33,422 nt of DNA from Dongiaceae bacterium (GCA_035511355.1 DATKFL010000278.1:1-33422); one strand, 5' to 3'; counted from the stretch's first letter, positions 2,318 to 26,295 are shown. Made by a program: numbers and translations. The notes: generated by a model not told the origin, from the sequence alone.

Positions 2318-2760
2318 CGACGACGCGTTGGGACCCGTTCCGCGATCTCCTGGCGATCCAGGACCGGATGAACCGCCTGTTCCAGGAGACCATGGCGCGC
2401 CAGCGCGGACAGGACGAGGTCGAGGCCGGCCAGTGGTCGCCGGCGGTCGATATCGTCGAGACCGCCGACCGGATCGTGCTGCGCGCCGACCTCCCCGGCA
2501 TGGAGCAGGGGGAGATCGAGGTGCGGGTCGACGACAACACCCTGACGCTGCGCGGCGACCGGCGGGCGACGGGTGACGCGCGTCCCGAGGATTTCCATCG
2601 CGCCGAACGGCCGCATGGGCCGTTCGTGCGCTCGTTCAGCCTGCCGCAGAACGTCGATCAGGCGGGCATCCGCGCGGTGCAGAAGAACGGCGTGCTCGAG
2701 GTGCTGCTCCCCAAGCGGCCCGAGGCGCGCGCCGCCTCCATCCGCGTCGAGGTGAAGTGA
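2314..2760 (+). CDS. Small heat-shock protein, Hsp20/alpha-crystallin family
   Basis: Alpha-crystallin domain ([23 protein letters not shown] ... GVLEVLLPK). ATG 2314 lies inside the ATGA overlap with the clpB stop. Confidence 0.9.
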
Positions 2761-3600
2761 ATGAACACGATCAAGACCGCGTTCTTCCTGGGGCTCCTGT
2801 CGGCGCTGATCGTCGTGGTCGGCGGCGCCATCGGCGGCCGGCAGGGCATGGTGATCGCCCTGCTCTTCGCCGCCGGGATGAACTTCTTCTCCTACTGGTT
2901 CTCGGACAAGATCGTGCTGGCGATGCACGGCGCGCAGCCGGTCAGCCGCGAACAGGCGCCGCAGCTCTATGAAATCCTCGAGCGGCTCACCGGCCGGAAC
3001 GGCATGCCGATGCCGCGGGTCTACATCCTGCCGGAGGAGGCGCCCAACGCCTTCGCCACCGGGCGCAATCCGTCGCATGCCGCGGTCGCGGTCACCCAGG
3101 GCATCATGCGGCTCCTGACCGCCGAGGAGATGGAGGGCGTGCTGGCGCACGAGCTGGCGCACGTCCACAACCGCGACATCCTGATCTCGTCGGTCGCCGC
3201 CACGCTCGCCTCGGCGGTGATGGTGATCGCCAACATGGCGAAATGGTCGGCCCTGTTCGGCATCGGCGGGCGCGACGATCGCGACGGCCCCAACCCGATC
3301 GTCCTCCTCGCCACCGCGATCGTCGCGCCGATCGGCGCGATGATGATCCAGAAGGCGGTGTCGCGCTCGCGCGAGTACCAGGCCGACGCGTCGGGGGCCG
3401 GGATGACCCACAACCCGTACGCCCTCGCGAGCGCGCTCGGGAAGCTCGATCAATACAGCAAGCGGATCCCGATGCTGAGCGCCAACCCCACCTCGAACCA
3501 CCTGTTCATCGTCAACCCCTTCAGCGCGGCGGGCTTCCAGAGGCTGTTCAGCACCCACCCGCCGATCCCGGAGCGGATCAAACGGCTGACGGGGCGGTGA
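2761..3600 (+). CDS. htpX: HtpX-type M48 membrane zinc protease
   Basis: N-terminal TM helices, NAFATG, zinc motif HELAHVHNRD and C-terminal STHPPIPERI. The ATG directly follows the hsp20 stop with no gap. Confidence 0.9.
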   Translation: MNTIKTAFFLGLLSALIVVVGGAIGGRQGMVIALLFAAGMNFFSYWFSDKIVLAMHGAQPVSREQAPQLYEILERLTGRNGMPMPRVYILPEEAPNAFATGRNPSHAAVAVTQGIMRLLTAEEMEGVLAHELAHVHNRDILISSVAATLASAVMVIANMAKWSALFGIGGRDDRDGPNPIVLLATAIVAPIGAMMIQKAVSRSREYQADASGAGMTHNPYALASALGKLDQYSKRIPMLSANPTSNHLFIVNPFSAAGFQRLFSTHPPIPERIKRLTGR

Positions 3601-4229
3601 TGGCCGACCCCAAGACGCCCGAGACGGCGCGCGGCGCCGGCGCGCCGGCCCCCGGGCCCGACGCCGAGCCGTCCTTCACCGTGGTCGATCGTCGGCCGCG
3701 CTATGACGAGGGCGATCCCGCCCCGGACGACCCGCCGCGCGAGCCGACCGTCGTGCAGGAGTTGCGCGCCCGGGTCGAGGAGGCGGAACGCCGCACGCGC
3801 GAGATCTCCGCGGCCTACCGCAAGATCGACCAGGAACGCGACGCCTTCCGCGAGCGGCTGTCGCGCGATCTCGAGCGGCGCGTCGACATCGCGCGCGCCG
3901 AGCTGATGCGCCGCGTCCTGCCGGTGCTCGACGATCTCGATCGGGCGCTCGCGGCGGCGCGCGGCGCCGGGCGCGAGGCGGGCCTCGCCGAGGGGGTGGC
4001 GCTCATCCGCGAGCGCTTGCGGCAGGCGCTCGCCGCCGAGGGGGTCGAGGCGATCCACACCAGCGGGGAGCCGTTCGACCCCGGGGTCGCCGAGGCGGTG
4101 TCGACCGAGATCACCGCCGATCCGGCGATGAACGGCGTGGTGGTCGAGGAGCTCGAACCCGGGTACCGGCTGGGCGCGGCGCTCCTCCGACCGGCGCGGG
4201 TGCGGGTCGCCCGGCTCGCCGAAGAGTAG
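3600..4229 (+). CDS. grpE: GrpE nucleotide exchange factor
   Basis: ATG 3600 shares its A with the htpX TGA. Coiled-coil region followed by GrpE beta-domain motifs (VLPVLDDLDRAL, FDPGVAEAV, ELEPGYRL..LLRPARVRV). The upstream part of the track ORF (from 3243) overlaps htpX and was rejected. Confidence 0.85.
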   Translation: MADPKTPETARGAGAPAPGPDAEPSFTVVDRRPRYDEGDPAPDDPPREPTVVQELRARVEEAERRTREISAAYRKIDQERDAFRERLSRDLERRVDIARAELMRRVLPVLDDLDRALAAARGAGREAGLAEGVALIRERLRQALAAEGVEAIHTSGEPFDPGVAEAVSTEITADPAMNGVVVEELEPGYRLGAALLRPARVRVARLAEE

Positions 4230-4240
4230 CGCGCGATCGC

Positions 4241-5179
4241 CTACAGGATGGTCTGACCGAGGGCCGAGAGGATCAGTTCGGCCCCGACCTCGGCCGAGCG
4301 GTTGCGCACGTCGAGCGTCGGGTTGAGCTCGACGAGATCGATCCCCGCCAGCCGGCCGCTCTCCGCCACCATTTCACACAGGAGGTGCGCCTCGCGATAC
4401 GACAGGCCGCCGCGCACCGGCGTGCCGACGCCCGGGGCGACCTCGGGGTCGAGCCCGTCGAGGTCGAGACTCAGGTGCAGGCCCTGGGTGCGCGCGCCGA
4501 TGGTGCCGAGAATCTCCTCGAGGATCGGGCCGATGCCGCGGCGGTCGACGTCCGACATGGTGTAGGCGCGCACCCCGCTCTGGCGCACGTGATTGCGCTC
4601 GCGCTCGTCGAGGTTGCGGATGCCGAGGAGCGCCACGTCCTCCGGTCGCACGCTGGCGCCGCCGCCGATCGCGACCAGCGACTCCGGCCCCTGACCGAGG
4701 CAGGCGGCCAGCGGCATGCCGTGCACGTTCCCCGAGGGGGAGGTCTCGGGTGTGTTCATGTCGGCGTGCGCGTCGACCCAGATCACGCCGAGCCGGCCCC
4801 CCTTCGCCCCGAGCGCCTGCGCCACCCCGGCGATTGACCCGGCCGCGAGCGAGTGGTCGCCGCCGATGCAGATCGGCGTGCGCCCCTCGGACACCGCCGC
4901 GCGGGTCAGGTTCGCGACCGCGCGGCAGACCGCGGCGATCTCCGCGACATAGCGCTGCCGCTCCCCGCCCACCGGCGTCGTCTCGGGGAGCGGGACGTCC
5001 ACGTCCCCGAGATCGGAAACCACGAGGCCGAGGGCGGCGAGACGCGCCCCGAGGCCGGTGATCCGCACGGCCGACGGACCCATGTCGACGCCACGGCGCC
5101 CGGCGCCGAGGTCGAGCGGGACGCCGATGAGGTCGACATGACGGGGACGGAACGGCACGGTGGGCGGCATGCCGGTCAT
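4241..5179 (-). CDS. rocF: Arginase (ureohydrolase family)
   Basis: Mn-binding motifs GGDHSLA, DAHADMNTP and SLDLDGLDP, plus arginase-type SGNVHGMPLA and GGLSYREAH. An alternative start at ATG 5170 (MPPTV...) fits a leaderless model (see findings). Confidence 0.85.
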   Translation of the reverse strand: MTGMPPTVPFRPRHVDLIGVPLDLGAGRRGVDMGPSAVRITGLGARLAALGLVVSDLGDVDVPLPETTPVGGERQRYVAEIAAVCRAVANLTRAAVSEGRTPICIGGDHSLAAGSIAGVAQALGAKGGRLGVIWVDAHADMNTPETSPSGNVHGMPLAACLGQGPESLVAIGGGASVRPEDVALLGIRNLDERERNHVRQSGVRAYTMSDVDRRGIGPILEEILGTIGARTQGLHLSLDLDGLDPEVAPGVGTPVRGGLSYREAHLLCEMVAESGRLAGIDLVELNPTLDVRNRSAEVGAELILSALGQTIL

Positions 5180-5202
5180 TATAATCGGCCGTGGAGGAAC
5201 TC

Positions 5203-6054
5203 ATGCCGATTCAACGGGTGCTGGTCGTGGGGGCCGGAACGATGGGTCAGGGGATCGCCCAGGCGGCGCTGCAGGCCGGCTACGACGTGACCCTCTCGGA
5301 CGTCGCGGCGCCGCCGCTCGAACGCGGGCTGGCGCGCCTCCGGGAGGGCCTCGAGACCGCGGTCGCGAAGGGGAAACTCGACCCGCCGGCGCGCGACCAG
5401 GCGCTCGGGCGGCTCGGCTCGACGACCGATGCGCGCGCCGCGGCGGCGGCGGCCGACCTGGTGATCGAGGCGGTCCCCGAGTCGATCGAGATCAAGCGCT
5501 CGCTGTACGCGGCGATCGATGCGGCGCTCCGCCCCGAGGCGATCCTGGCGAGCAACACGTCGTCGCTCGGCATCGCCGACCTGGCCGGCGGTCTCGCCCG
5601 ACCGGAGCGGTTTCTCGGGATGCATTTCTTCAACCCGGTGCCGGTGATGGCGCTCCTCGAGCTGGTGGTGCATCCCGGGACGGCGCCGGAGGTGCTGGAG
5701 GCGGCACGCGCCGTCGGGGCGCGGCTCGGCAAGACCTGCATCACCGTGAAGGACTCTCCCGGATTCGCCAGCAGCCGCCTCGGGCTGGCGCTCGGCCTCG
5801 AGGCGATGCGCATGCTCGAGGAAGGAGTGGCGTCGGCGCAGGACATCGACACGGCGATGGAGCTGGGCTACCGCCACCCGATGGGTCCGCTCAAGCTCAC
5901 CGACCTCGTCGGTCTCGACGTCCGCCTCGGGATCGCCGAGCACCTGCACCGGACTCTCGGGCGCGACCGGTTCGAGCCGCCGCGGATCCTGCGCGAGCAC
6001 GTCGCCGCCGGGCGTCTCGGCAGGAAGTCGGGGCGCGGCTTCTACGAGTGGTGA
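5203..6054 (+). CDS. hbd: 3-hydroxybutyryl-CoA / 3-hydroxyacyl-CoA dehydrogenase
   Basis: Rossmann VVGAGTMGQGIAQ, plus NTSSL, HFFNPVP and SPGF motifs. SD GGAGGA lies 4 nt before ATG 5203. The track start, GTG 5191, is an alternative. Confidence 0.85.
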   Translation: MPIQRVLVVGAGTMGQGIAQAALQAGYDVTLSDVAAPPLERGLARLREGLETAVAKGKLDPPARDQALGRLGSTTDARAAAAAADLVIEAVPESIEIKRSLYAAIDAALRPEAILASNTSSLGIADLAGGLARPERFLGMHFFNPVPVMALLELVVHPGTAPEVLEAARAVGARLGKTCITVKDSPGFASSRLGLALGLEAMRMLEEGVASAQDIDTAMELGYRHPMGPLKLTDLVGLDVRLGIAEHLHRTLGRDRFEPPRILREHVAAGRLGRKSGRGFYEW

Positions 6055-6058
6055 CCGC

Positions 6059-6084
6059 CCGGGGCGGCGCCCTCTGCGCCCCGG
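6059..6084. terminator. GC-rich 8-bp hairpin between the convergent hbd and ubiA-like genes (no U-tract)
   Basis: CCGGGGCG (6059..6066) pairs with CGCCCCGG (6077..6084) around a 10-nt loop, in the 52-nt convergent intergenic gap. There is no T-run on either side. Confidence 0.2.
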
Positions 6085-6106
6085 ACCTCGCCGCCGGCAC
6101 ACCCGG

Positions 6107-7093
6107 TCACAGCAGGTAGGCGATCGCGAACCCGATCTGGGCGCACATCATCATGAGGTACATGTGCGTCCAGGAGGGGTGGTTCTCGGTCGACGCGAGT
6201 GACGCGGGGTCTTTCAGGATGAGCCGCGCCGTGTAGCCGCCCCAGGCGGCGAGCAGCAGCCCCAGCCCCGCGAGCAGGATCGGGTTGCCGGTCAGGATCC
6301 TGCCGCCGCCGAACGGGTCGTCGAGCACCGTCCCGAGCGGGATCAGGAGCCACGGCAGCACGAAGAAGGGCGCCGCGAACCGCGCCGCCCGCTCGACCCC
6401 CCAGGCGATCGGCAGGGTGCGGCAACCGTGCGCCGCGTCCCCCTCCATGTCGGAGAAGTCCTTGCTGGTGGTCGCCCCGAGCAGGAACAGGAGGAAGACC
6501 AGCCCGATGTACCACGGCTCGACGTGCAGGACGCTCCCGACCATCGACCAGCCGGCGACTTTGAGAAGGCAGCCGCGCGGCACCGCGATGGTCACGTTGG
6601 CCCACAGCCCGAAGCGCTTCGTCCGGCCCCAGGCCGGGTCGGAGTAGACCAGGGTCAGGATGAGGCCCGCGAGATAGATCGCGAAGCACTCGTGCGCGGC
6701 GAGCGGCGCGAACAGCCGCTCGGCGAACGACGCCCGCGGGTGGATCACGACGAGCCAGGTCGGCAGGAGCGCCGCGAGGTACAGGAGCGCGGCGAACCGG
6801 CGTGCCGCCGCGAGGGTGACCGTGCCCGCCGGCAGCGGCCGCTGCGGCTTGTTGCGCCGATCGATCTCGAGGTCGTGGATCTGGTTGAGCACGTTGCTGG
6901 CGGCGTTGAGCAGCGCCGCGCACAGCGAGCCGAGCGCGATGGTGGTCACCACCGCCAGGGTGAAGCGGCGCGCCGGGTCGGGGTTGTGCGCCGAGCCGAA
7001 GGCGGTCAGCGCCCCCGAGACCACCCCCAGCGTCGGCGGGAGGAGGGTGAACGGGCGGGTGAAGTCGGCATACAGCCGGAGGCGGTTCGTCAC
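6107..7093 (-). CDS. UbiA-superfamily aromatic prenyltransferase, homogentisate-prenyltransferase/chlorophyll-synthase-like
   Basis: Polytopic membrane protein. First Asp-rich motif is NQIHDLEIDRRNKPQRPLPAG (codons at about 6860..6886); second is KDFSDMEGDAAHGCRTLPIAWG. The GTG start overlaps the upstream stop (GTGA at 7090..7093). Confidence 0.8.
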   Translation of the reverse strand: MTNRLRLYADFTRPFTLLPPTLGVVSGALTAFGSAHNPDPARRFTLAVVTTIALGSLCAALLNAASNVLNQIHDLEIDRRNKPQRPLPAGTVTLAAARRFAALLYLAALLPTWLVVIHPRASFAERLFAPLAAHECFAIYLAGLILTLVYSDPAWGRTKRFGLWANVTIAVPRGCLLKVAGWSMVGSVLHVEPWYIGLVFLLFLLGATTSKDFSDMEGDAAHGCRTLPIAWGVERAARFAAPFFVLPWLLIPLGTVLDDPFGGGRILTGNPILLAGLGLLLAAWGGYTARLILKDPASLASTENHPSWTHMYLMMMCAQIGFAIAYLL

Positions 7094-8442
7094 CCCGCCG
7101 CCCCGACGCTCGCCGATGCGAACAGCGCTCCGGCCACGGCGGCGAGCGCGCCGACGAGCGTGTTGGAGAAATTCACCGCTTCATTGTCCATCAGGCCGCG
7201 CCGCTCGAGCGTCGCGCCCAGCAGCGAATCGGCGCTCGACCCGAGGAACGCGGCGACCAGGATGATCGGGATCGCCGCCGGGCCGACGAGACCGAGAGCG
7301 CGGGCGAGCCCCGCGACGACGAGCGCACCGCCGAAGCCGGCGAGCGTCCCGAGCAGGCTGACGGCGCCGTCGGTGCCGACCGCGACCCGCCGGAGCGTCG
7401 TGATCATCACCGGCCGCCCACCCCAGGCCTGGCCGATCTCGCTCGACAAGGTGTCGAAGGTCGCCGTCGCGTAGGCGGCGACGAACGCGACCAGGTACAA
7501 GGCCGGCGCCGGCGCGGTCGTCGCGAGAATCGCGAGATAGACCGCGACGCCGCAGTTGGCGATCGCATGCCGCGCCGAGCGCGCCCCCTTCTTTCCCTGC
7601 GCCACGCCGAGCCTCTCCTTGCGCGCCCGCCCGAGGCGGGTGGTCGCGGAGCCGAGCAAGAAGAACGCGATGAGAATGGTGAAGGCCGCGGCCCCCCCGA
7701 ACGTCCAGGTCAGGGTGCCGACCGCGAATCCGGCCGCCATCCCGGATCGATCGACCGTTCCGGTCCAGCGGAACAGGACCGCGAGGAGGGCGTTGACCGC
7801 GACGGCCGCCGCGAACGGCCGTCCCAGCGCCGGCAGGACTTCCGGAAGCCGGGTCGCCTGCGCCTGCACCAGGCCGCACAGGAAGAGCGCCGACAGGAGC
7901 GGCACCGTCAGGTTGTCGTTCAGCCGCCAGGGCAGCGACTCGACGAACGCCGCGAACAGCGCGGTCGGCGCCGCCAGGAGCGCCGCTTCCGGCGCCTCCC
8001 GTCCCATGTAGACCAGGATGCCGAAGGTCGCCGCGAAGGCCGCCACCGCGAAGGCCGCGGTCCCGATCAGGGTCTTCGATCGGTTCCACGGCACCCGGCG
8101 GCCGCCGAACGACATCCCCGCGGCGCGCGCCGCCGGGTCCCCCGCCGCCATGATCACCCAGCCGGCCGCGGCCACCTCCATGCGCCAGCCGAAGACCAGC
8201 ACCAGGATCAGCACCGCGAAGGGATAGAGATGGATGCCGGAGTCGAGCCACCCGCGTCGCTCGCCGTCGCGAAACAGGCGCGCGCCGAGGATCGGCAGGG
8301 CCGCGACGTTGAACACCACCGCCGCCGCGGCGACCAGCGCCGCCTGGGGCACGGTCAGGAACTTCAGGGTCAGCGCGAGAAGTCCGGCGCCGCCGTGCAC
8401 GAGCCCGCGCAGGAGCTCGCTCGTGCCAGTGCGGGCGCGCAT
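7090..8442 (-). CDS. Fusion protein: N-terminal CTP-dependent polyprenol (phytol/dolichol) kinase-like domain plus C-terminal DUF92/TMEM19 (phytyl-phosphate kinase VTE6-like) domain
   Basis: N-terminal half: GDPAARAAGMSFGGRRVPWNRSKTLIGTAAF and ESLPWRLNDNLTVPL (VTE5/dolichol-kinase signature). C-terminal half: GSATTRLGRARKERLG, DTLSSEIGQAWGGRPVMITT and GTDGAVSLLGTLAG (DUF92 signature). ATG 8442 shares one nt with the upstream TGA; the longer track ORF (to 8664) would overlap the upstream gene. Confidence 0.75.
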   Translation of the reverse strand: MRARTGTSELLRGLVHGGAGLLALTLKFLTVPQAALVAAAAVVFNVAALPILGARLFRDGERRGWLDSGIHLYPFAVLILVLVFGWRMEVAAAGWVIMAAGDPAARAAGMSFGGRRVPWNRSKTLIGTAAFAVAAFAATFGILVYMGREAPEAALLAAPTALFAAFVESLPWRLNDNLTVPLLSALFLCGLVQAQATRLPEVLPALGRPFAAAVAVNALLAVLFRWTGTVDRSGMAAGFAVGTLTWTFGGAAAFTILIAFFLLGSATTRLGRARKERLGVAQGKKGARSARHAIANCGVAVYLAILATTAPAPALYLVAFVAAYATATFDTLSSEIGQAWGGRPVMITTLRRVAVGTDGAVSLLGTLAGFGGALVVAGLARALGLVGPAAIPIILVAAFLGSSADSLLGATLERRGLMDNEAVNFSNTLVGALAAVAGALFASASVGAAG

Positions 8443-9449
8443 CACGCGTGGTCCCGCGGTCCCGCCGCCGCCGCGGTCGCGGACATCGACGTGAGAGTCG
8501 CGCCCAGCGCCTCGACCGGCGGGGTCATCGTGTAGCCGATCTCCGCCGCCGCGCGATCGGAACGGTACGCCCACTCGTGCCGGAAGGTGCGCACGACGCC
8601 CGGCGTCACCTCCGGCGGGTGCCCGGTGAGACGCGCGCGCAGGATCTGCAGGCCGCCGACCCACTCCCCGAGGCGGTACGGCACGACGATCCGCGGCGCC
8701 GGTCTCCCGGTCAGGGCGGCGAGGTGCATGAACAGATCGCGCTGCGTGAGGTTGGCGCCGCCGAGGATGTACCCCGGACCCGGCCGGCCGCGCTCGAGCG
8801 CCAGGAGATGGCCGCGCGCGACGTCCTCGGCATAGGCGTAGCAGATGCGCAGGTCGTCGCGCCCGAGGCGCGCATGCAGCCGCCCGCGACGGTAGTCGTC
8901 GAGGACCGGCCCGATCAGGTTTCCCTCGGTCGCGGCTCCCGGCCCGAAGACGATGCCGGGGTAGACCACCACGATCGGCTGGCCGGCGGCGAGGCGCGCG
9001 CGCACCCTGGCGAGCGAGATCCGCTTGGTGCGCTCGTAGTCCGTGAAACCGGGCGCCGTCGCCGGCGGGCGGCTCTCGTCGCCGATCGACCCGTCGGTCG
9101 GCCCGATCGCCACGATGCTCGAGGTGTAGACGATCCGCGGCGTTCCGGCCTCGGCGGCGAGCGCCAGGATCCGCTCGGTCCCCTCGACGTTGACCCGGTC
9201 GAACGCGGCGCGGTCGCGCGCCCAGCGCTTCACCATCGCCGCCATGTGCACGAGCGCCTGGCAGCCGGCGAGCGCCGCGCGCAGCGCCGACGCGTCGAGC
9301 AGGTCGCCGGTGACCGGCACGCAGCCGGCCGGCACGGCCGCCTCACGACCCGGGCGGCAGAGCACCCGCACGTCGTGCCCGCCGGCGACCAGCGTCCGCG
9401 CGACCCGGGCGCCGAGGTACCCGGTGGCGCCGGTGATCAGCACCTTCAT
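8442..9449 (-). CDS. NAD-dependent epimerase/dehydratase (extended SDR; dihydroflavonol-reductase/HpnA-like)
   Basis: MKVLITGATGYLG Rossmann motif and catalytic YERTK (YxxxK). The ATG sits in an ATGA overlap with the rmlD-like stop (9446..9449). Substrate not assignable from sequence. Confidence 0.8.
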   Translation of the reverse strand: MKVLITGATGYLGARVARTLVAGGHDVRVLCRPGREAAVPAGCVPVTGDLLDASALRAALAGCQALVHMAAMVKRWARDRAAFDRVNVEGTERILALAAEAGTPRIVYTSSIVAIGPTDGSIGDESRPPATAPGFTDYERTKRISLARVRARLAAGQPIVVVYPGIVFGPGAATEGNLIGPVLDDYRRGRLHARLGRDDLRICYAYAEDVARGHLLALERGRPGPGYILGGANLTQRDLFMHLAALTGRPAPRIVVPYRLGEWVGGLQILRARLTGHPPEVTPGVVRTFRHEWAYRSDRAAAEIGYTMTPPVEALGATLTSMSATAAAAGPRDHA

Positions 9450-10318
9450 GCGAACGCCCCGCCGCCGAGCGCATCGGCGAGCGCCTGCTGCCAGGCGCGC
9501 GGCATCGCGCCGGTCAGCCGCTCGTACAGTCCGGTTGAGAGCGCCGTGTAGGCCGGCCGGTCGGCGGCCGGAAAGAGCTCGCGCGCCGCCACCGGCGTGA
9601 CCGCCACCTTTCCGGCGAGCCCGAGCGCGGCGAGGATGACCTCGGTCATCTCGAGACGCGAGCCGACGCCGCGGTTGACCAGATGCACGACGCCCCGATG
9701 CTCGACGCGCAGAAGCCGCGCGATCCCGTCCGCGAGGTCGTCGACGAAGGTCGGCGAGCCGGTCTGGTCGGACACCACCCGCAGCGGCTCGCCGGCGAGC
9801 GCGCGCCGTCGGATCCCGGTCACGAAGGCGCCGCCGTCGCGCCCGAACAGCCACGCGGTCCGCACGATGAGATGATCCGGCGCCGCGGTCGCCACCCGAC
9901 GCTCGCCGTCCAGCTTCGAGCGGCCGTACTCCTGGATCGGCCCGACCGGGTCGTCCTCGACGTACGGCCGGGTCCCGACGCCGTCGAAGACGTAGTCGGT
10001 GCTGATCTGCACCAGGCGGCAACCCGACGCCGCGGCGGCGCGTGCCGCGTTCTCCGCGCCGATCGCGTTCACCGTGCGCGCCCGCTCCGGTTCGCGCGTG
10101 CAGCCGTCGACGTCGGTGAAGGCGGCGCAATTGATCACCACGGTCGGGTTCAGGCGTTCGATCTCCATCTCGAGGCGGAAGCGATCGGTGACGTCGGCCT
10201 CGGCGCGGGTCGCCGCGACCGTCTCCGGGAACTCGGCTTCGAGCCGGCGCGTCAGGGCCCGCCCGAGAAGGCCCGAAGCGCCGATCACCATGGGGCGGGG
10301 CGTCGCGGGGTCGGCCAT
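9446..10318 (-). CDS. rmlD: dTDP-4-dehydrorhamnose reductase-like SDR (RmlD/RfbD family)
   Basis: VIGASGLLG, INCAAFTDVDGCE-like segment, STDYVFDG and YGRSK. ATG 10318 shares its A with the lptD TGA. No rmlA, rmlB or rmlC in the window. Confidence 0.75.
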   Translation of the reverse strand: MADPATPRPMVIGASGLLGRALTRRLEAEFPETVAATRAEADVTDRFRLEMEIERLNPTVVINCAAFTDVDGCTREPERARTVNAIGAENAARAAAASGCRLVQISTDYVFDGVGTRPYVEDDPVGPIQEYGRSKLDGERRVATAAPDHLIVRTAWLFGRDGGAFVTGIRRRALAGEPLRVVSDQTGSPTFVDDLADGIARLLRVEHRGVVHLVNRGVGSRLEMTEVILAALGLAGKVAVTPVAARELFPAADRPAYTALSTGLYERLTGAMPRAWQQALADALGGGAFA

Positions 10319-13074
10319 CAGAGCCCACCGCCGGTGCGCTGGTGGAAATCGATCACGTTGCCGACCCCCTTGAGATTGATCAGGAACCGGAATTCGGTCT
10401 GCTCCGAGCCGACGAAGTTCCGGTTAAGGTACTCCAGCTGGAACCCGCAGCACTGCGTGTTGTAGCCGGCGCGGTAGCGCTGGTCGCGCATGCGCGGCTC
10501 CCCCTCGACCACGTCGCCCAGCTCGTAGTTGATCTGGAAGCCGAGCAGGAGCCGGCGCGCGAAGACCGTGGTCTCCCCCATCAACCCGATCTGGCTGCGA
10601 TCGAACGGCGTCGTGAACGCCAGCCCCTGGTCCTCGAGAGCCTTCCCCTCGAGGTCGCGGGTCACCGTCCAGGTCAGATCGAGGAAGCCGCGGCCGGGGC
10701 TCCTGAGATTCGCGCTCAGGCTGGCCTCCCGCACCTGGCGGAAGAGAACGTCGAACGACGTCCGCATGTCGATGCTGGTGTTGATCGACGGGTTGAACCG
10801 CAGCGTGCCGCGGATCGGCGACACCGGCCGGTTTTCGCCGAGCGCCGCGGAGATCGACAGAGGCCCGAGGAACGAGTAGTCCTGGGTGACCTCGAGGGTC
10901 GCCACCTCGACCGTGTTGAGCGATTTCGGGCTGCCGGAGCCGGCCGCGGGCGTCTCGCCGGTGCCGGGCGGGGCGATCGAGGTGTTCGCCTTGCGGAGAA
11001 GGTCGGCGAGCTGATCCTGCGGTCCGCCCATCGACCCGGGGACGTCGGTCCCGGGGAAGCCGGTCTGCGCCTCGCCGGTCGCCGGCCGCCGCGCGAACAG
11101 CCGCGTGGTCAGGCCGTAGGTCAGGCGGTTCGACTCCCCGGGGATGGTGTCGATCTCGTCGAACGGGATGATCCGGGTGCTGTTCTCCACCGACGAGATG
11201 TAGGTGTAGCGCAGCGTCGGCTCCCACGAGTTCTTGAATTGCGGCGAGAAGTGCGAGTCGGGCGTGTCGAAGATGCGGTTGAACTTGGGGCCGACGAGGC
11301 TCAACCCTGCCTGGTACAGCCGCCGGTCGAGGTTGTCGTCGACGATCGCCGTGATCTCGGCGTCGCGCACGCCGTTCCCCTCGCCGTAGTCGCCGGTGCC
11401 GGGAATGCCGTCGCAGCCGATGTCCTCGGCGGCGTCGAAGACGCCGTCGCCGTTCAGGTCGGCCTCGCGATCGGCCAGCCCGTTCCCCTCCCCGTAGTCC
11501 CCCGAGTCGGGGATGTTGTCGCACCCGACGTCGCCGCGCTGGCTGCGGGTGTAGTAGGTGGCGCGCGCCGAGGCGGTCGCCTCCACGTCGAGCCACGGCA
11601 GGGGGGAAAGCTGCGAGGAGATCTGCGGGAAGGCATCGGCGCGCTCGTAGGTGGTGTCGCGATCCCCGCGATCGAGGTGGTCGACCGTCCCCTCGACGGC
11701 GAAGAAGAAGGGCGAGTCGGCGATCCTCTGGCGCCGTCCGCGGAACTCGACCTCCGGCGCCACCCAGCGGACGATGGTGTCCTGCACGAACCCCAGGGTC
11801 GGGCCGCCGACCGGCACGAGCAGGACCGGGTCCTGCACCAGGAGCTCGCGGCGCTCCGTCCAGGCGTTCAGGGAGTAGAAGCCCCAGTTGCGCGTCAGGT
11901 ACGCCTTGCTGACCGCTTGCGGGCTCGACGACACCCGGATGTCGCGCTCGAAGTCGAGGTAGTAGTCGAAATCGCTGACGAAGTTGGCGTTCACCACGAA
12001 GCGCCACTCGGAGGTCAGGTCCTGCTGGTGGTTGTAGTCGATCACCCAGCGATCGACCGGGACGCCGGGGACGTTCTCCTCCTTGGCCACCTGGTCGCGG
12101 ATGTAGTAGCCCGAGAAATGGCCGCGCCCGGTCTCGCTCGGCATGTAGCGATACTCCAGGCCCGAGCCGTATCCCGACTTCGACATGTAGTCGAAGTAGT
12201 AGGTCGCGTCCATGCTCCGGTTCATGGCCCAGTACCAGGCGTCGGAGATGACCGTGCCGCTGCGCTTGGAGAACCCGAACTCCGGGAAGAGGAGGCCGGA
12301 GACCCGGTCGCGCTTGATCGGCCAGACGAGGTACGGGGTGTAGAAGACCGTCGCCTTGCCGACCTTGAAGGACAGGTCGTGAAGATAGGCGTATTCGTCG
12401 AGGCGCAGGATCCCGTGGCCGATCTTGAACGACCAGTAGGGCGTCGGCTGCGTGCAGGCGGTGAACGAGGCATTCTCGAGGACCAGCTCGGTCTTCGACG
12501 TCTGCTCGACGCGCGCCGCTTCGAACAGGATGCTCGGCTCGGCGTAACCGCGTGCATTGAGGAACTGCCCGGTGCCGGTCTCGAGGTTGTAGTCGAGGCT
12601 GTCCGCGGTGATCCGGACCTTCGACTGGTCGAGGACGACGTTCCCCTCGGCATGCGCCTGGTGGGTCGACGGCACGTAGCGCACGAGGTCGGCCTGCAGC
12701 CGCAGGTCACCGCACTTGATGTCGACATATTCCTTGAGGATCAACTCCTCGGGGTCGAGCACCGACCCGGGTCCGGCGGCGATCTCGAGGGCGCAGCCGC
12801 CCGGACCGGCGCCGGCGACGGTCGGTGCCACCGAGACGCCGCCGTGCGTCGCGCCGGGCGTCGGAGCGGCGGGCGGCGCGGGCGGCGGCGTCGGCGCGTC
12901 GGCGGCCGGCGGCGCGGGCGCCTCGGGTCCCCCGGCGGCCGGCGGGGTGACCGGGGGTGGCTGGGTCTCCTGCGCGGGGGGATCGTCGGCAACCGCGAGC
13001 GCCGGCACGCCGGCGAAGGCCGCGCCGAGAAGCGCCATCAGGAACGGCAGGCGTAGTGGGCGGCGGCGCCGCAT
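10318..13074 (-). CDS. lptD: LptD/OstA-family outer-membrane LPS-assembly protein, with a Pro-rich N-terminal linker and a Ca-binding-like insertion
   Basis: Signal peptide MRRRRPLRLPFLMALLGAAFAGVPALA. OstA-N jellyroll (LRLQADLVRY..AEGNVVL..ITADSLDYNLETG) followed by a long beta-barrel (FTACT...YWSF, SGLLFPEFGFS, WYW...). ATG 13074 shares one nt with the upstream TGA; the 1209-aa track ORF is a run-on into the upstream gene. Confidence 0.85.
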   Translation of the reverse strand: MRRRRPLRLPFLMALLGAAFAGVPALAVADDPPAQETQPPPVTPPAAGGPEAPAPPAADAPTPPPAPPAAPTPGATHGGVSVAPTVAGAGPGGCALEIAAGPGSVLDPEELILKEYVDIKCGDLRLQADLVRYVPSTHQAHAEGNVVLDQSKVRITADSLDYNLETGTGQFLNARGYAEPSILFEAARVEQTSKTELVLENASFTACTQPTPYWSFKIGHGILRLDEYAYLHDLSFKVGKATVFYTPYLVWPIKRDRVSGLLFPEFGFSKRSGTVISDAWYWAMNRSMDATYYFDYMSKSGYGSGLEYRYMPSETGRGHFSGYYIRDQVAKEENVPGVPVDRWVIDYNHQQDLTSEWRFVVNANFVSDFDYYLDFERDIRVSSSPQAVSKAYLTRNWGFYSLNAWTERRELLVQDPVLLVPVGGPTLGFVQDTIVRWVAPEVEFRGRRQRIADSPFFFAVEGTVDHLDRGDRDTTYERADAFPQISSQLSPLPWLDVEATASARATYYTRSQRGDVGCDNIPDSGDYGEGNGLADREADLNGDGVFDAAEDIGCDGIPGTGDYGEGNGVRDAEITAIVDDNLDRRLYQAGLSLVGPKFNRIFDTPDSHFSPQFKNSWEPTLRYTYISSVENSTRIIPFDEIDTIPGESNRLTYGLTTRLFARRPATGEAQTGFPGTDVPGSMGGPQDQLADLLRKANTSIAPPGTGETPAAGSGSPKSLNTVEVATLEVTQDYSFLGPLSISAALGENRPVSPIRGTLRFNPSINTSIDMRTSFDVLFRQVREASLSANLRSPGRGFLDLTWTVTRDLEGKALEDQGLAFTTPFDRSQIGLMGETTVFARRLLLGFQINYELGDVVEGEPRMRDQRYRAGYNTQCCGFQLEYLNRNFVGSEQTEFRFLINLKGVGNVIDFHQRTGGGL
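11341..11535 (-). repeat. Intragenic tandem duplication in lptD encoding two Cys-containing acidic Gly/Asp repeats
   Basis: GCDNIPDSGDYGEGNGLADREADLNGDGVFDAAEDI is followed by GCDGIPGTGDYGEGNGVRDAEI. The two units are clearly related at both protein and DNA level. DLNGDGVFD resembles DxDxDG-type calcium-binding loops. Confidence 0.6.
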
Positions 13075-13883
13075 CAAAGGACGGCGACCCCCGCATAAGC
13101 GACGACCGAGTCGTGGTCTCCCGTTCGCTCGCCGGAGTGCCCGTACGCGACCAGGCGCGCCTCCGAGGCCCCGAGCGCGACCGCCGCCTCGAGCCCGGCG
13201 ACCACCGGTGCCATGCCGCACATGCTGATGTCGGCGGCGGTCACCTCGCGGTGCAGCCCCGCCGGGTCGAGGGCCAGAAGCGGGGCAAGCGCCCGGCGAT
13301 CCAGGCGGTCGGCCTCGGTCGCGGGCAGGTAGTGCGACATGTCGCTCGAAAGGACGAGAAGGGTCGGCGCCGCGATCGCCGCGACCGCCTGGGCAATCGC
13401 CCGCCCGAGATCGAGAAGCCTCCCGAGACGGTGGGTGCCGACGCAGATCGGCACGAAGCTGAACGACGGGGCGAGCTGCTGCAGGAGCGGGATCTGCACT
13501 TCGAGGGAGTGCTCGCGCTGGTGCGCGACTGCGTCGATCGACGCCCCGCCGCAGCGTTCGAGAATCGCGGCGGCGAGCGGCGCGTCGATGGGAACGTCGC
13601 CGAACGGCGTTCTCCAGTCCCCCTCCGCCATCACGGCGATCGGCTCCCCCAACCCCGTATGGTTCGGTCCCAGGATCACCACCCGCCCCGGAAGGTGGGT
13701 CGCGAGATACGTTTCGACGGCGATGCCGCCCGAATAGATGTAGCCGGCATGCGGAACCATGACCGCGATCGCGGCGGGCGCGCGTGGCGGGCGACGCCCC
13801 GCGACGAACCCCGCGATCTCGGCTTCGAGCGCTCTCGGATCGGCCGGATAGAAGGTGCCGGCCACGGCGGGCCTGCGAATCAT
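13074..13883 (-). CDS. MEMO1-family protein (AmmeMemoRadiSam system protein B-like)
   Basis: AVAGTFYP, VPHAGYIYSG, LGPNH, HSLEVQIPLLQ, SSDMSHY and MCG motifs typical of the Memo family. First gene of the lptD operon. Confidence 0.8.
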   Translation of the reverse strand: MIRRPAVAGTFYPADPRALEAEIAGFVAGRRPPRAPAAIAVMVPHAGYIYSGGIAVETYLATHLPGRVVILGPNHTGLGEPIAVMAEGDWRTPFGDVPIDAPLAAAILERCGGASIDAVAHQREHSLEVQIPLLQQLAPSFSFVPICVGTHRLGRLLDLGRAIAQAVAAIAAPTLLVLSSDMSHYLPATEADRLDRRALAPLLALDPAGLHREVTAADISMCGMAPVVAGLEAAVALGASEARLVAYGHSGERTGDHDSVVAYAGVAVL

Positions 13884-13987: not shown

Positions 13988-14023
13988 CCGGGCTTTCACA
14001 ACGCTTCGTGAGGTAGGTTCCGG

Positions 14024-14956
14024 ATGACCGCCGCTCGCGGCAGGAAGAGGCGTGATCCAGGTGGCGGGGCGGGGCGCCGAGGGGGTCTCCGGATCGCCCT
14101 GGCGCAGCATGCCCCGATCCTCGGGGATCTCCGTCGCAACGTGCACGCGCACGTCGAGCTGGCGCGCCGCGCCGCGGCGCGGGGCGCCGATCTGGTGGTC
14201 TTCCCCGAACTGAGCCTGACCGGATACCGCCTGCAGGATCTCGTGTCGGAAGTCGCCGTGCGGCTCGATCGCCCCGGACCGCTCGCCCCCCTGCTCGCGG
14301 CCAGCCGCCGCATCGGCATCGTCGCCGGCCTGGTCGAGGAGTCGGAGGGTCACCGTTTCTACAACGCGGCGGTCCATTTCGAGGGCGGGCGGATCCGCCA
14401 CGTGCACCGCAAGGTGTATCTCCCGACCTACGGAATGTTCGAGGAGGGGCGCTACTTCTCCGCGGGCGACACCTTTGCCGCCTATCGCAGCGCCGCCGGC
14501 CGCACCGGCCTGCTCGTCTGCGAGGACGCCTGGCACCCGGCGAGCGCCCTGGTCCTGGCGCAGGACGGCGCCGACCTCGTGCTCGTCCTCGCGAACGGGC
14601 CGAGCCAGGCGGTCGGCGTCGCGGGCGGGCCGCGCAACCACGAGACCTGGCTCGATCTCGCGCGCGTGACGGCGCAGATGCAGACCGTCTTCGTCGCCTT
14701 CGTGAACCGGGTCGGGGTCGAGGATGGGGTCGGCTTCTTCGGCGCCTCGATGGTGGTCGACCCGCTCGGCCGGGTGGTCGCCTCGGCGCCGACGCTGCGC
14801 GAGGATCTGATCGTCGCCGATCTCGACCGCGCGCTTCTCCGCCGGGCGCGCACCTACTACCCGCTCCTGCGCGACGAGCGGCTGCCGGTCCTGGCGCGCG
14901 AGATCGCCCGCCTGGCCTCCGCCCCGCAGGCGCGCCGCGGTCCGGGGGGCACGTGA
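14024..14956 (+). CDS. Carbon-nitrogen hydrolase (nitrilase superfamily amidase)
   Basis: Catalytic triad contexts VVFPELSLTGY (Glu), HRKVYLPTYG (Lys) and LLVCEDAWHP (Cys). The stop overlaps the downstream GTG (GTGA at 14953..14956). Confidence 0.85.
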   Translation: MTAARGRKRRDPGGGAGRRGGLRIALAQHAPILGDLRRNVHAHVELARRAAARGADLVVFPELSLTGYRLQDLVSEVAVRLDRPGPLAPLLAASRRIGIVAGLVEESEGHRFYNAAVHFEGGRIRHVHRKVYLPTYGMFEEGRYFSAGDTFAAYRSAAGRTGLLVCEDAWHPASALVLAQDGADLVLVLANGPSQAVGVAGGPRNHETWLDLARVTAQMQTVFVAFVNRVGVEDGVGFFGASMVVDPLGRVVASAPTLREDLIVADLDRALLRRARTYYPLLRDERLPVLAREIARLASAPQARRGPGGT

Positions 14957-16650
14957 AGATCCTCCTGGCCTACAAGTGCCACGATCTCGGCCGGATGGAG
15001 TTCTACTCGCGCTTCACCCCGCTCGGCCTCGGAACCATCGCCGCGCACCTGCGCCGCGAGGGGTTCGACGCCACGCTGGTCAATCTCTCCGCCTGGTCCT
15101 GGCCGAAGGTGGCGCGCTATCTCGAGGCCGAGCGCGCCGATCTCGTCGGCGTCTCCGCCTTCACCTTCAACCGGCACGAAGCGATGCGGGTGGCGGCCCT
15201 GGCGCGCGCCGCCAACCCCGCTGCGTTGATCGTAGCCGGCGGGCCGCACGCCACCCACCTGCCGGAGCCGCTGCTCGAGTCCTATCCCGCCGTCGATCTC
15301 GTGGTGCGCGGCGAGGGGGAGGAGACGCTCCTCGACCTGGCGCGCCGGGTCGCGACCGGGACGGCGTTGCGCGGCGCCAGCGCCGGCGCCGCCCTCGCGA
15401 ACATTCCCGGGATCACCTGGCGCGACGGTGCGGGACTCCGCGCCAACCCCGATCGCCCGGTGATCCTGGATCTCGACCGGCTGCCGCACCCCGCCGCCAA
15501 CCCGGCGATCGTCGGCATCGAGGCCGATTCCCAGTTCGAGTTCACCATCACCTCGCGCGGCTGCCCCGCCGCCTGCACCTTCTGCTCCTCGCCGGAGTTC
15601 TGGGGGCGCGGGCTGCGCTTCCGCTCGGCAGCGCACATGCTGGACGAGGTGCGGCTCCTCCGGGAGCGGCACGGCGTGGTCTACGTTTCGGTGCGCGACG
15701 ACACCTTCACGGTGAACAAGAAACGGGTGATCGACTTCTGCCGCGGCCTCATCGACGCGAAGCTCGACCTTCTCTGGGACTGCCAGTCGCGGGTCAACAT
15801 CGTCGACGAGGAGCGGCTGGTCTGGATGCGCCGCGCCGGCTGCACCCACATCCAGTACGGCGTCGAGTCGGGTTCGCCGCGCATGCTGGAGCGGCTCAAC
15901 AAGGGGATCCGGCTCGAGGAGATCCGCGCCGCCGCGGCCCTGACGCGCAGGGTCGGTCTCGGACTGTCGATCTACCTGATCACCGGCATCGACTCGGAGA
16001 ACGACGACGACCTCGGCTCGACCCTGCGGCTGATCGAGGAGATCCGCCCGCACGACGGCCTGGTGTCGCCGCTCACCGTCTACCCCGGGACCGGTCTGTA
16101 CGAGGAGGCGAAGCGCCGATTCGGCCTCGGCGACGACTACTGGGTGAACGATCGACGCGAGGCCTACTACGTGCGCGAGGATCCCTGGACCCGGCGCGCG
16201 GTGCGCACCCTGCGATCGGCGCTCAAGCGGGTCGGTCGCGACGCCGCCTACGGCCCGGAGGACTTCGCGCGGCAGCGGGCCCTGGTCGGCGACTGCTACG
16301 CGCTGCGGCTCGCCGTGGGCGAATACGAGGAGCGGCGCGGCCGGCTGCGCGCCGCGGCGGCGGAGTACGAGCGCCTCCTCGCCGACGACCCCGCGAGTCT
16401 CTGGGCGCGGATGCGGCTCGGGCATGTCGCGCTGCGGCGGAAGCGACCGGCCGAGGCGGTGGCGCACTACCACGCCGCGGCCGCGCTCGTCCCCGCCTTC
16501 CGGCACGCGCGCCGCATGCTGCGCGAGAGCCGGGCGCGCGCCGCGGCCGCCGGCGTTTCGGTGACCGCGACGCGGCGTGCCGCGCCACCGCGGGCCGGGT
16601 TCGGGCGACGGCCGGCGGCGCGGGCCGCGGGCGCGCCCGCCTCCGCCTGA
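14953..16650 (+). CDS. B12-binding-domain (class B) radical SAM protein with a C-terminal TPR-like region
   Basis: N-terminal cobalamin-binding-like Rossmann domain (DLVGVSAFT...IVAGGPHAT...VVRGEGE), a CPAACTFC (CxxxCxxC) cluster, a radical SAM TIM-barrel core, and a C-terminal helical-repeat tail (AAAEYERLLADDP...). Confidence 0.8.
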   Translation: MKILLAYKCHDLGRMEFYSRFTPLGLGTIAAHLRREGFDATLVNLSAWSWPKVARYLEAERADLVGVSAFTFNRHEAMRVAALARAANPAALIVAGGPHATHLPEPLLESYPAVDLVVRGEGEETLLDLARRVATGTALRGASAGAALANIPGITWRDGAGLRANPDRPVILDLDRLPHPAANPAIVGIEADSQFEFTITSRGCPAACTFCSSPEFWGRGLRFRSAAHMLDEVRLLRERHGVVYVSVRDDTFTVNKKRVIDFCRGLIDAKLDLLWDCQSRVNIVDEERLVWMRRAGCTHIQYGVESGSPRMLERLNKGIRLEEIRAAAALTRRVGLGLSIYLITGIDSENDDDLGSTLRLIEEIRPHDGLVSPLTVYPGTGLYEEAKRRFGLGDDYWVNDRREAYYVREDPWTRRAVRTLRSALKRVGRDAAYGPEDFARQRALVGDCYALRLAVGEYEERRGRLRAAAAEYERLLADDPASLWARMRLGHVALRRKRPAEAVAHYHAAAALVPAFRHARRMLRESRARAAAAGVSVTATRRAAPPRAGFGRRPAARAAGAPASA

Positions 16651-26227: not shown

Positions 26228-26267
26228 CTCCCGCGGGGCGTGTGCTAGGCTGACCGCCCCGCGGGAG
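26228..26267 (+). terminator. Perfect 13-bp GC-rich hairpin downstream of the DUF2911 gene (no U-tract)
   Basis: CTCCCGCGGGGCG (26228..26240) pairs with CGCCCCGCGGGAG (26255..26267) around a 14-nt loop, starting 12 nt after the stop codon. It is followed by GC-rich sequence, so this is not a canonical intrinsic terminator. Confidence 0.35.
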
Positions 26268-26295
26268 TGGCCGCGGCCGGTGTCGGGAGGTCGTC

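Follow-up and report, generated by a model that had tools for sequence, protein, structure and literature searches.

The 33,422-nucleotide stretch of DNA analysed here (the window; Dongiaceae bacterium, GCA_035511355.1 DATKFL010000278.1:1-33422) carries on its minus strand a gene for a predicted two-domain integral membrane protein of 450 amino acids, in which a half resembling the phytol kinase VTE5 is followed by a DUF92 half resembling the phytyl-phosphate kinase VTE6. The stop codon of this fusion gene (7090–8442) overlaps the start codon of a gene for a UbiA-superfamily prenyltransferase (6107–7093). Our preferred reading, to which we assign a probability of roughly 0.5, was that the fused protein would act as a two-step kinase converting prenol to prenyl diphosphate and would feed the UbiA enzyme, which could in turn make an uncharacterised, possibly envelope, lipid. 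The domain order of the fusion, with the VTE5-like half first, matches the order of the two reactions, and each half is, by sequence homology, related to the plant enzyme of the corresponding step. Fusions typically join consecutive steps of a pathway. The nearest characterised UbiA families appear to be those that use such prenyl diphosphates, and the fusion–UbiA pair persists across deep divergence, also in rearranged form.

In plants and cyanobacteria, VTE5 and then VTE6 make phytyl diphosphate for VTE2 and chlorophyll synthase. Prenol salvage of this kind proceeds from the alcohol to the monophosphate and on to the diphosphate, and in reviews from 2024 to 2026 the prenol and prenyl-phosphate kinases were assigned to genes only in plants, cyanobacteria, and Plasmodium, with the enzymes unidentified elsewhere (PMC13022625, PMC10849223).

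Fusion gene and protein

The fusion gene begins with an ATG at 8442 and ends with a stop codon at 7092–7090, corresponding to 450 amino acids plus the stop. The 451-codon open reading frame (ORF) and the motifs quoted in a first-pass annotation of the window were recovered in place on the minus strand. The window has a guanine-plus-cytosine (GC) content of 72%, and the fusion frame exhibited a GC fraction of 0.90 at third codon positions against 0.57 at second positions, a coding signature typical of this genome. The overlap of the fusion's TGA stop with the GTG start of the UbiA gene (GTGA) was as that annotation had described it, and this GTG is the earliest possible start in the UbiA frame.

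The concern that the fusion might be a frameshift artefact joining two genes was ruled out by more than 100 homologue clusters of 440–451 amino acids with 50–90% identity across the full length of the fusion, by an alignment of 36 homologues that was uninterrupted across the inter-domain region, and by an AlphaFold model (predicted local distance difference test score 92, 15 helices) in which a long helix bridges the halves and the chain is continuous through the junction. Fusion clusters named by their source belonged to Acidobacteriota or Candidatus Polarisedimenticolia. In a library of 1.84 billion proteins, from which representatives were drawn, the N-terminal half had 7934 representatives; both halves were present in 80 of the 152 nearest, with the N-terminal half first in every case, and the remainder were stand-alone proteins of about 190–215 amino acids, or fragments. 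Full-length fusions beyond Polarisedimenticolia were found in Thermoanaerobaculia and Terriglobia and, among archaea, in Hydrothermarchaeales (locus L024) and Methanocellales (L028, L030). The fusions of L028 (5947–7203) and L030 have a degenerate N-terminal half that has lost the GD motif and retains only ..NENLTVPL. Two genes for UPPS-like cis-prenyltransferases directly adjoin the L028 homologue, and this position hints at a connection with archaeal dolichol or polyprenol metabolism.

A tblastn search against plasmids returned a single irrelevant DUF92 match, a sequence search of the PDB with the full-length fusion profile gave no match at E 10, and Foldseek searches of the PDB with AlphaFold models of the whole fusion and of the N-terminal half alone gave no significant match. 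Two apparent new architectures, P0388 (short-chain dehydrogenase/reductase [SDR] plus N-terminal half) and P0249 (N-terminal half in C-terminal position), were rejected, as both contained long Arg/Ala/Pro-rich stretches that looked out of frame; an error of gene calling or a frameshift in a high-GC metagenome contig is the most likely cause of each.

The VTE5-like half

The N-terminal half (amino acids 1–208; 7819–8442, minus strand) is by homology a VTE5-type prenol-kinase domain (COG0170) and not CdsA proper, as indicated by profile–profile (hhalign) and BLASTP comparisons. Against 24 plant phytol kinases its profile reached a probability of 99.3% (E 4e-20, 179 columns), with residues 12–191 spanning residues 113–310 of VTE5 and all invariant motifs superposed. 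Against single sequences, the profile gave 98.3% (score 99.4, E 1e-14, 176 columns) for Capsella rubella VTE5 versus 8.7% (score 26.6, E 0.004, 60 columns, first motif only) for Escherichia coli CdsA. The window sequence itself was about 30% identical to C. rubella VTE5 in BLASTP (E 2e-11). The phytol-kinase set was collected with an Arabidopsis VTE5 query, which a cluster named "phytol kinase" by JGI matched at 100% identity, ahead of many other phytol kinases from plants. CdsA proper was rejected as the identity of this half, with no match in the PDB sequence search and only a non-significant one in Foldseek, and the first-pass preference for a prenol kinase was upheld.

The first conserved motif, GDPAARAAGMSFGGRRVPWNRSKTLIGTAAF (amino acids 101–131; 8050–8142), has the form GD..A...G..GGR..PWN..K...G and aligned motif on motif to GDGxADxxGRxFGxxKxPYNxxKSxxGS of VTE5; G101, D102, A105, G109, W119, N120, K123, and G127 were invariant among the 36 homologues. 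The second, ESLPWRLNDNLTVPL (amino acids 168–182; 7897–7941), aligned to ESLPxxxxDDNxSVPL of VTE5, with E168, S169, L170, D176, N177, V180, and P181 invariant in the same alignment. Near the N-terminus, R12, V15, and H16, also invariant, aligned to VTE5 invariants and correspond to the R..VH clamp described previously (PMC10849223). The Lys of the R-K..H form of this clamp is replaced by Gly in the window protein and is Arg or Lys in most homologues.

The likeness to VTE5 and to the other COG0170 kinases FOLK and PfPolK consisted of homology over the full N-terminal half, aligned conserved motifs, and a membrane domain that is small (about 200 amino acids) and has several helices. Unlike VTE5, the window protein is fused to DUF92, has no transit peptide, differs at the clamp Lys and over much of its sequence, and belongs to Acidobacteriota, with no photosynthesis genes in view. 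Stand-alone relatives of this half were labelled "dolichol kinase" by JGI and COG0170 by Tara.

The DUF92 half

The C-terminal half (amino acids 217–450; 7093–7794, minus strand) carries a full-length DUF92 (TIGR00297) domain, in agreement with the initial assignment. PF01940 matched residues 217–432 at E 2e-53 (181.8 bits versus a cut-off of 27.5; profile positions 3–251 of 251), a result that places the half in the family. DUF92 is the family of the plant VTE6 phytyl-phosphate kinase, which has been characterised as a kinase. The family also goes by the name TMEM19, and its equivalent COG1836 is cited in PMC9782597. Whereas plants have two separate genes, here the domain shares one polypeptide with the putative kinase of the step before it.

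The motif DTLSSEIGQAWGGRPVMITT (amino acids 330–349; 7396–7455) is the counterpart of the first motif of the N-terminal half, with D330, T331, E335, G337, and G341 invariant in the 36-homologue alignment, and it is followed by GTDGAVSLLG (amino acids 356–365; 7348–7377). An hhalign comparison of the two halves gave a weak match (E 1.3e-3 over 171 columns; amino acids 89–190 against 318–425) in which their motifs coincided: GD..A...G..GGR fell on FDT.SSEIG...GGRP and ESL...DN on DS.LGATLE...DN. From these alignments, the VTE5-like and DUF92 halves look like distant paralogues within one superfamily that uses cytidine triphosphate (CTP).

The UbiA-superfamily prenyltransferase

The UbiA protein (328 amino acids; PF01040 113.2 bits versus a cut-off of 34.2) has two Asp-rich motifs that were nearly identical in pattern to those of DGGGPS from Methanocaldococcus jannaschii. 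The first, NQIHDLEIDRRNKPQRPLPAG (amino acids 70–90; 6824–6886, minus strand), aligned to NDIFDIEIDRINKPSRPLPSG of that enzyme, and the second, KDFSDMEGDAAHGCRTLPIAWG (amino acids 211–232; 6398–6463), to KDFEDMEGDKKEGVISLPI. Among 28 orthologues, N70, Q71, D74, D78, R79, N81, K82, P83, and R85 were invariant in the first motif and K211, D212, F213, D215, M216, G218, and D219 in the second. A third motif, ENHPSWTHMYLMMM (ENHPSW.HMY.MM; amino acids 303–316; 6146–6187), is specific to this clade, with E303, N304, H305, W308, M311, Y312, M314, and M315 invariant; the C-terminus from NHPSW onward was kept in the orthologues of L081 and L090, and the L026 variant ended in ...PAWRQMYLMMM.

In NCBIfam scans, the window protein scored highest with PRK12884, an unnamed prenyltransferase (110.7 bits), followed by ChlG (89.3), DGGGPS (80.7), and HPT (69.1), all under their cut-offs. 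In each of six orthologues taken from diverged loci, PRK12884, ChlG/BchG, DGGGPS, and HPT were the highest-scoring models, at 55–137 bits. The individual thresholds were far off for ChlG/BchG (PRK07566 89.3 versus 313, TIGR01476 77.3 versus 212.3, and TIGR02056 55.5 versus 436 bits; orthologues at most 136.6), for DGGGPS (PRK12882 80.7 versus 296, PRK12883 62 versus 353), and for HPT (PRK12887 69.1 versus 226; orthologues 56–100). The DPPR synthase models scored low (NF008978 21 versus 207, NF008976 19.7 versus 474 bits) and matched just amino acids 45–117. A PDB profile search with the UbiA family returned M. jannaschii DGGGPS (6m31, 1.4e-21) and then chlorophyll a synthase (9sau, 5.7e-17), with ApUbiA, UBIAD1, and AfUbiA following at 2e-5 or worse; DPPR synthase was absent from the matches. 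MenA, heme O synthase, UbiA proper, and EboC were rejected as identities of the window protein at 39 bits or less each, and MqnP was absent from the matches listed for this protein; in the L090 orthologue it scored 29.6 bits.

On these comparisons the protein is a member of an orphan clade nearest to PRK12884, ChlG/BchG, DGGGPS, and HPT. The first-pass description as "homogentisate-prenyltransferase-like" was therefore right in that HPT is among the relatives and too specific in that PRK12884, ChlG/BchG, and DGGGPS score higher. ChlG/BchG, DGGGPS, and HPT use C20 diphosphates, either phytyl diphosphate or geranylgeranyl diphosphate (GGPP), which are the products of VTE5 and VTE6. Compared with DGGGPS, its best solved relative, the UbiA protein begins the first motif with NQ rather than ND, has an insertion between the motifs and the clade-specific C-terminal ENHPSW.HMY, and is encoded in a window where Pfam scans of the ORFs found no GGGPS (PcrB-family) match. 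ChlG/BchG, the second-best solved relative, headed the NCBIfam matches of the orthologues in L090 and L026 (127–137 bits, nearly full length), but no bch or chl genes were found nearby, so that a tetrapyrrole acceptor is unsupported. With HPT/VTE2 the protein shares what we take to be the NQ..D...D start of the first motif, whereas it reads RPLPAG where HPT presumably has LPLASG. A tocochromanol-like compound or a prenylquinone, as raised in the first-pass annotation, would be a possible product; no HPPD, cyclase, or methyltransferase gene was found near the locus.

Operon and related loci

The fusion and UbiA genes end a six-gene minus-strand string (6107–13883) with an overlap of 1–4 nucleotides at each junction, in the order Memo TGATG LptD TGATG RmlD ATGA SDR TGATG fusion GTGA UbiA. 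It is headed by a gene for a Memo-like protein (13074 to about 13883; PF01875 E 6e-68), the stop of which overlaps the ATG of a gene for an LptD-like outer-membrane lipopolysaccharide (LPS) assembly protein of 918 amino acids (10318–13074; PF04453 and PF19838). The Memo-like gene occupied the same position in L090, L093, and L095. The LptD-like protein contains, after the signal peptide, a long Pro/Ala-rich low-complexity stretch (PPAQETQPPPVTPPAAGGPEAPAPPAADAPTPPPAPPAAPTPG...; amino acids ~30–110, window ~12700–13000, minus strand), which is in our view unusual for LptD.

The two adjacent SDR genes of the first-pass annotation lie directly upstream of the fusion and proved to be a true RmlD and an HpnA-like extended SDR. 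RmlD, the dTDP-4-dehydrorhamnose reductase (9446–10318; 290 amino acids), exceeded its threshold (TIGR01214 279.7 bits versus 224.05). The extended SDR, of HpnA/3-beta-HSD/OleD-like type (8442–9449; 335 amino acids), matched the Pfam families Epimerase and 3Beta_HSD and, in NCBIfam, HpnA (TIGR03466, 219 bits versus an unmet cut-off of 367.65), SdmB (133), and OleD (104); the L090 orthologue scored 183.8 bits with HpnA, and the best solved relative was a "putative oxidoreductase" (PDB 3wj7, E 4.8e-40). HpnA, SdmB (a sterol demethylase reductase), and OleD are lipid-acting reductases.

The pairing of the UbiA gene with the fusion, on which the first-pass annotation had relied, was maintained in several diverged lineages and in two arrangements. 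The SDR adjoined the fusion in most related loci, and SDR, fusion, and UbiA stayed together down to 38% fusion identity. Loci of the Polarisedimenticolia type kept LptD-RmlD-(SDR)-fusion-UbiA, with the SDR absent in some. In four loci, a gap of about 2 kb lay between fusion and UbiA; the sole gap inspected (L006) held ECF sigma factor-like and anti-sigma factor-like ORFs, as judged from translations only. The complete Memo-LptD-RmlD-SDR-fusion-UbiA string was found again in L093–L096. In L081 (fusion 50%, UbiA 63% identical to the window), genes for a nucleoside triphosphate (NTP) transferase and two more epimerases/dehydratases were added. L090 (fusion 38%, UbiA 50%, SDR 39%) had Memo-LptD-SDR-fusion-UbiA with 4-nucleotide overlaps and without RmlD, and in L026 (fusion 37%, UbiA 48%), where RecN/MutM and unrelated genes form the surroundings, UbiA immediately preceded the fusion. 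Among the listed matches the UbiA protein was better conserved than the fusion (66–98% versus 50–90% identity).

In two loci the module is followed immediately by a gene of the alkaline-phosphatase superfamily. The one in L095 (9031–10299) encodes a PF01663 phosphodiesterase and overlaps the UbiA end; the one in L082 (9360–10868) is of the sulfatase family and follows the fusion in place of UbiA. Such neighbours suggest that an intermediate or the product carries a phosphate. A split version was found in L083, with a stand-alone relative of the N-terminal half and a DUF92 gene 180 bp later. In L085/L086 (Tara and ENA contigs; 2409–6213), a stand-alone COG0170-type relative of 191 amino acids lay in an apparent LPS-core heptose cluster, flanked by PfkB kinase and HAD phosphatase genes and by a CTP_transf_like gene and a Glyco_transf_9 heptosyltransferase gene. 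A gene for a B12-binding radical SAM protein, unrelated to the one in the window, adjoins the stand-alone VTE5-like gene in L085. No GT-C glycosyltransferase was seen in any locus. Two loci labelled Verrucomicrobiia (L009) and Candidatus Cryosericum (L018) matched the Polarisedimenticolia contig L001 both in their LptD-RmlD-fusion(-UbiA) arrangement and in identity to the window (69% and 68%), and are probably mis-binned acidobacterial contigs.

Proposed pathway and competing explanations

In the pathway that we favor, the fusion would be a bifunctional membrane kinase, probably CTP-dependent. Its VTE5-like half would phosphorylate a free isoprenoid alcohol, most likely a C15–C20 prenol such as geranylgeraniol or phytol, and its DUF92/VTE6-like half would add the second phosphate. 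The prenyl diphosphate could then be handed to the translationally coupled UbiA enzyme, which would ionise it on the two Asp-rich motifs and transfer the prenyl group to an acceptor yet to be identified. The lipid-type SDR encoded upstream probably acts before the transfer, on the alcohol or the acceptor, or after it, on the product. Predicted co-transcription of the module with lptD and rmlD suggests that this product could be a lipid of the envelope. Both kinase activities, the use of CTP, and the chain length are predictions from sequence, as are the hand-over to UbiA, the acceptor, what the SDR does, and where the product ends up.

Several findings weigh against this pathway. Enzyme activity of the prokaryotic members is predicted only, and chain length is unreadable from sequence, with the stand-alone relatives carrying the label "dolichol kinase" in their source. 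The prenol-kinase signature claimed by the first-pass annotation stood in the profile–profile comparison and failed in direct scans, where the N-terminal half had no Pfam or NCBIfam match even at E 10, with or without an upstream in-frame extension; Pfam scans of ten distant representatives gave one marginal PF01148 match (E 0.22). This absence carries little weight, because most genuine plant phytol kinase clusters likewise have no precomputed Pfam match. Fold searches yielded just a non-significant match to CdsA (Foldseek probability 0.54–0.57, TM-score 0.29–0.37), the DUF92 half stayed under the TIGR00297 cut-off (174.6 versus 205.85 bits), and the specific UbiA family models were all under theirs (212–436 bits). 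Pfam scans of the window ORFs found neither a GGPP synthase nor a reductase, and no pathway that might supply an acceptor. Fusion homologues in L021, L023, and L087 had no UbiA neighbour, the one in L087 standing alone; in L022 the order was LptD, RmlD, a Gmd-like gene, SDR, and then the fusion, again with no UbiA neighbour; and the UbiA position was taken in L082 by the sulfatase-family gene and in L088 by a MocA-like NTP transferase. The fusion family was also repeatedly linked to LPS and nucleotide-sugar genes, a pattern that a role in a polyprenyl-phosphate carrier pathway would explain no less naturally.

Such a carrier pathway for envelope glycans is unlikely on balance, and it is the competitor that we take most seriously. 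The N-terminal half would here be an undecaprenol or polyprenol kinase of the dolichol-kinase-like type giving polyprenyl phosphate, onto which a DPPR-synthase-like UbiA enzyme would load a phospho-sugar; the SDR would epimerise or reduce the lipid-linked sugar, a phosphodiesterase or phosphatase would trim it, and the product would decorate LPS. The first-pass annotation had offered a version of this, likened to the mycobacterial UbiA-type phosphoribosyltransferase and its SDR epimerase partners. With the mycobacterial DPPR pathway (Rv3806c UbiA, a phosphatase, and DprE1/DprE2) the window shares a UbiA gene beside an SDR gene in a cell-envelope neighbourhood and, in some relatives only, an alkaline-phosphatase-family gene. 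The genomic side of this explanation has support: the module lies in one overlapping operon with lptD and rmlD, and the linkage is kept across Acidobacteriota classes (L022, L081, L093, L095). The additional NTP-transferase and epimerase/dehydratase genes of L081, the heptose-pathway and heptosyltransferase neighbours in L085, the phosphatase-superfamily genes after UbiA (L095) or after the fusion (L082), and the "dolichol kinase" labels point the same way. The enzymatic side fared poorly, as the UbiA protein reached 21 bits with the DPPR models, on the first motif only, compared with 55–137 bits for ChlG, DGGGPS, and HPT across six orthologues, and had no DPPR synthase among its PDB matches. 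What a carrier pathway requires is the monophosphate, and this would leave the DUF92 half, which is invariably fused, without a role; the half also has no counterpart in the DPPR pathway. The window SDR is extended and best matches lipid reductases rather than nucleotide-sugar epimerases, whereas DprE2 is, we assume, a classical short SDR. L026 keeps the UbiA–fusion pair with no LPS genes nearby, L090 has no rmlD, and the GT-C glycosyltransferase is missing throughout. The explanation retains some probability because the link to LPS and nucleotide-sugar genes is genuine and maintained across loci, and it could be combined with the salvage pathway that we favor in that the product may be an isoprenoid envelope lipid.

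Less probable again is a general salvage of isoprenoid alcohols that refills the pool of prenyl diphosphates from which menaquinone, carotenoids, hopanoid precursors, and carrier lipids are made, with UbiA adjacency as inherited gene order. Fusion homologues without UbiA in many unrelated neighbourhoods (L021, L022, L023, L024, L082, L087, L088) are consistent with this, as is the sampling of the fusion family, with its thousands of N-terminal representatives, over more taxa, including Archaea, than the UbiA clade seen here; the plant VTE5 and VTE6 also serve several consumers (PMC9782597). Inheritance alone explains poorly, however, that the pair with overlapping stop and start is kept to 37–38% fusion identity and is found elsewhere with UbiA first, or that UbiA is the better conserved partner. 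A further proposal, which we regard as very improbable, is that one or both halves are CdsA/CarS-type cytidylyltransferases that would activate the phosphorylated product of a DGGGPS-like UbiA enzyme with cytidine monophosphate, giving an isoprenoid lipid activated by cytidine diphosphate. CarS acts after DGGGPS in Archaea, and among solved structures it is DGGGPS that lies closest to the UbiA protein. The superfamily motif D..A...G..G...K/T..G is common to CdsA and to each of the two halves, and CdsA had the highest, albeit non-significant, Foldseek probability. Against it, the N-terminal half aligned over 176–179 columns with phytol kinases versus 60 with CdsA, its second motif is of the kinase type ES.P...DDN..VP, which differs from the C-terminal signature of CdsA, Pfam and NCBIfam scans of the fusion gave no CarS match, and plant DUF92 is established as a kinase.

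Significance of the putative fused kinase

The PlantSEED prediction of VTE6 reportedly drew on the clustering or fusion, in prokaryotes, of COG1836 genes with genes resembling phytol kinase, and the fusion by itself is probably not new to comparative genomics. We found no description in the literature of the dominance of the fusion in Acidobacteriota and its presence in Archaea, of its constant association with a lipid-type SDR and an orphan UbiA clade of ChlG/DGGGPS-like type, or of its place in an lptD operon. As a widely conserved natural fusion, it is an independent argument of the "Rosetta-stone" type that proteins of COG0170 and DUF92 act in succession, and as a single gene it could be expressed to test both kinase steps. 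The orphan UbiA clade and lipid-type SDR in the lptD operon of a phylum common in soils and sediments would point to an isoprenoid lipid unreported in Acidobacteriota lipidomics. If the glycan-carrier explanation were true, the locus would instead define a new polyprenyl-phosphate route in LPS modification.

A more far-reaching version of our preferred reading, doubtful in so specific a form, is that the SDR, fused kinase, and UbiA trio, with lptD, makes an undescribed C20-prenylated (ether- or ester-linked) acidobacterial envelope lipid, the tail of which would be recycled by the first gene-assigned prenol salvage in a prokaryotic non-phototroph. The archaeal fusion would then be the long-missing geranylgeraniol and geranylgeranyl-phosphate kinase.

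Other genes of the window

The remainder of the window consisted of housekeeping genes, including those for ClpB, HtpX, GrpE, arginase, EF-P, NadE, SmpB, and ThiG. Pfam scans of the window ORFs found no photosynthesis or isoprenoid-synthesis genes, and the photosynthesis-free context proposed at first was thereby borne out. Divergent from the operon, a gene for a B12-binding radical SAM protein with C-terminal tetratricopeptide (TPR) repeats (14956–16650, plus strand) adjoins a CN-hydrolase gene (14012–14956, plus strand). Its best NCBIfam matches were ApyD (200 bits), BchE (172), and HpnJ (149), all far under their cut-offs. The CN-hydrolase and radical SAM–TPR pair also flanks the operon in L095/L096, a recurrence that may be coincidence. 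At 26254–28430 (plus strand), a DUF1611 protein gene is followed by an overlapping gene for an enolase-superfamily (MR_MLE) protein; both are ordinary-looking, and the pair presumably resembles those tied to peptide epimerisation or murein recycling.

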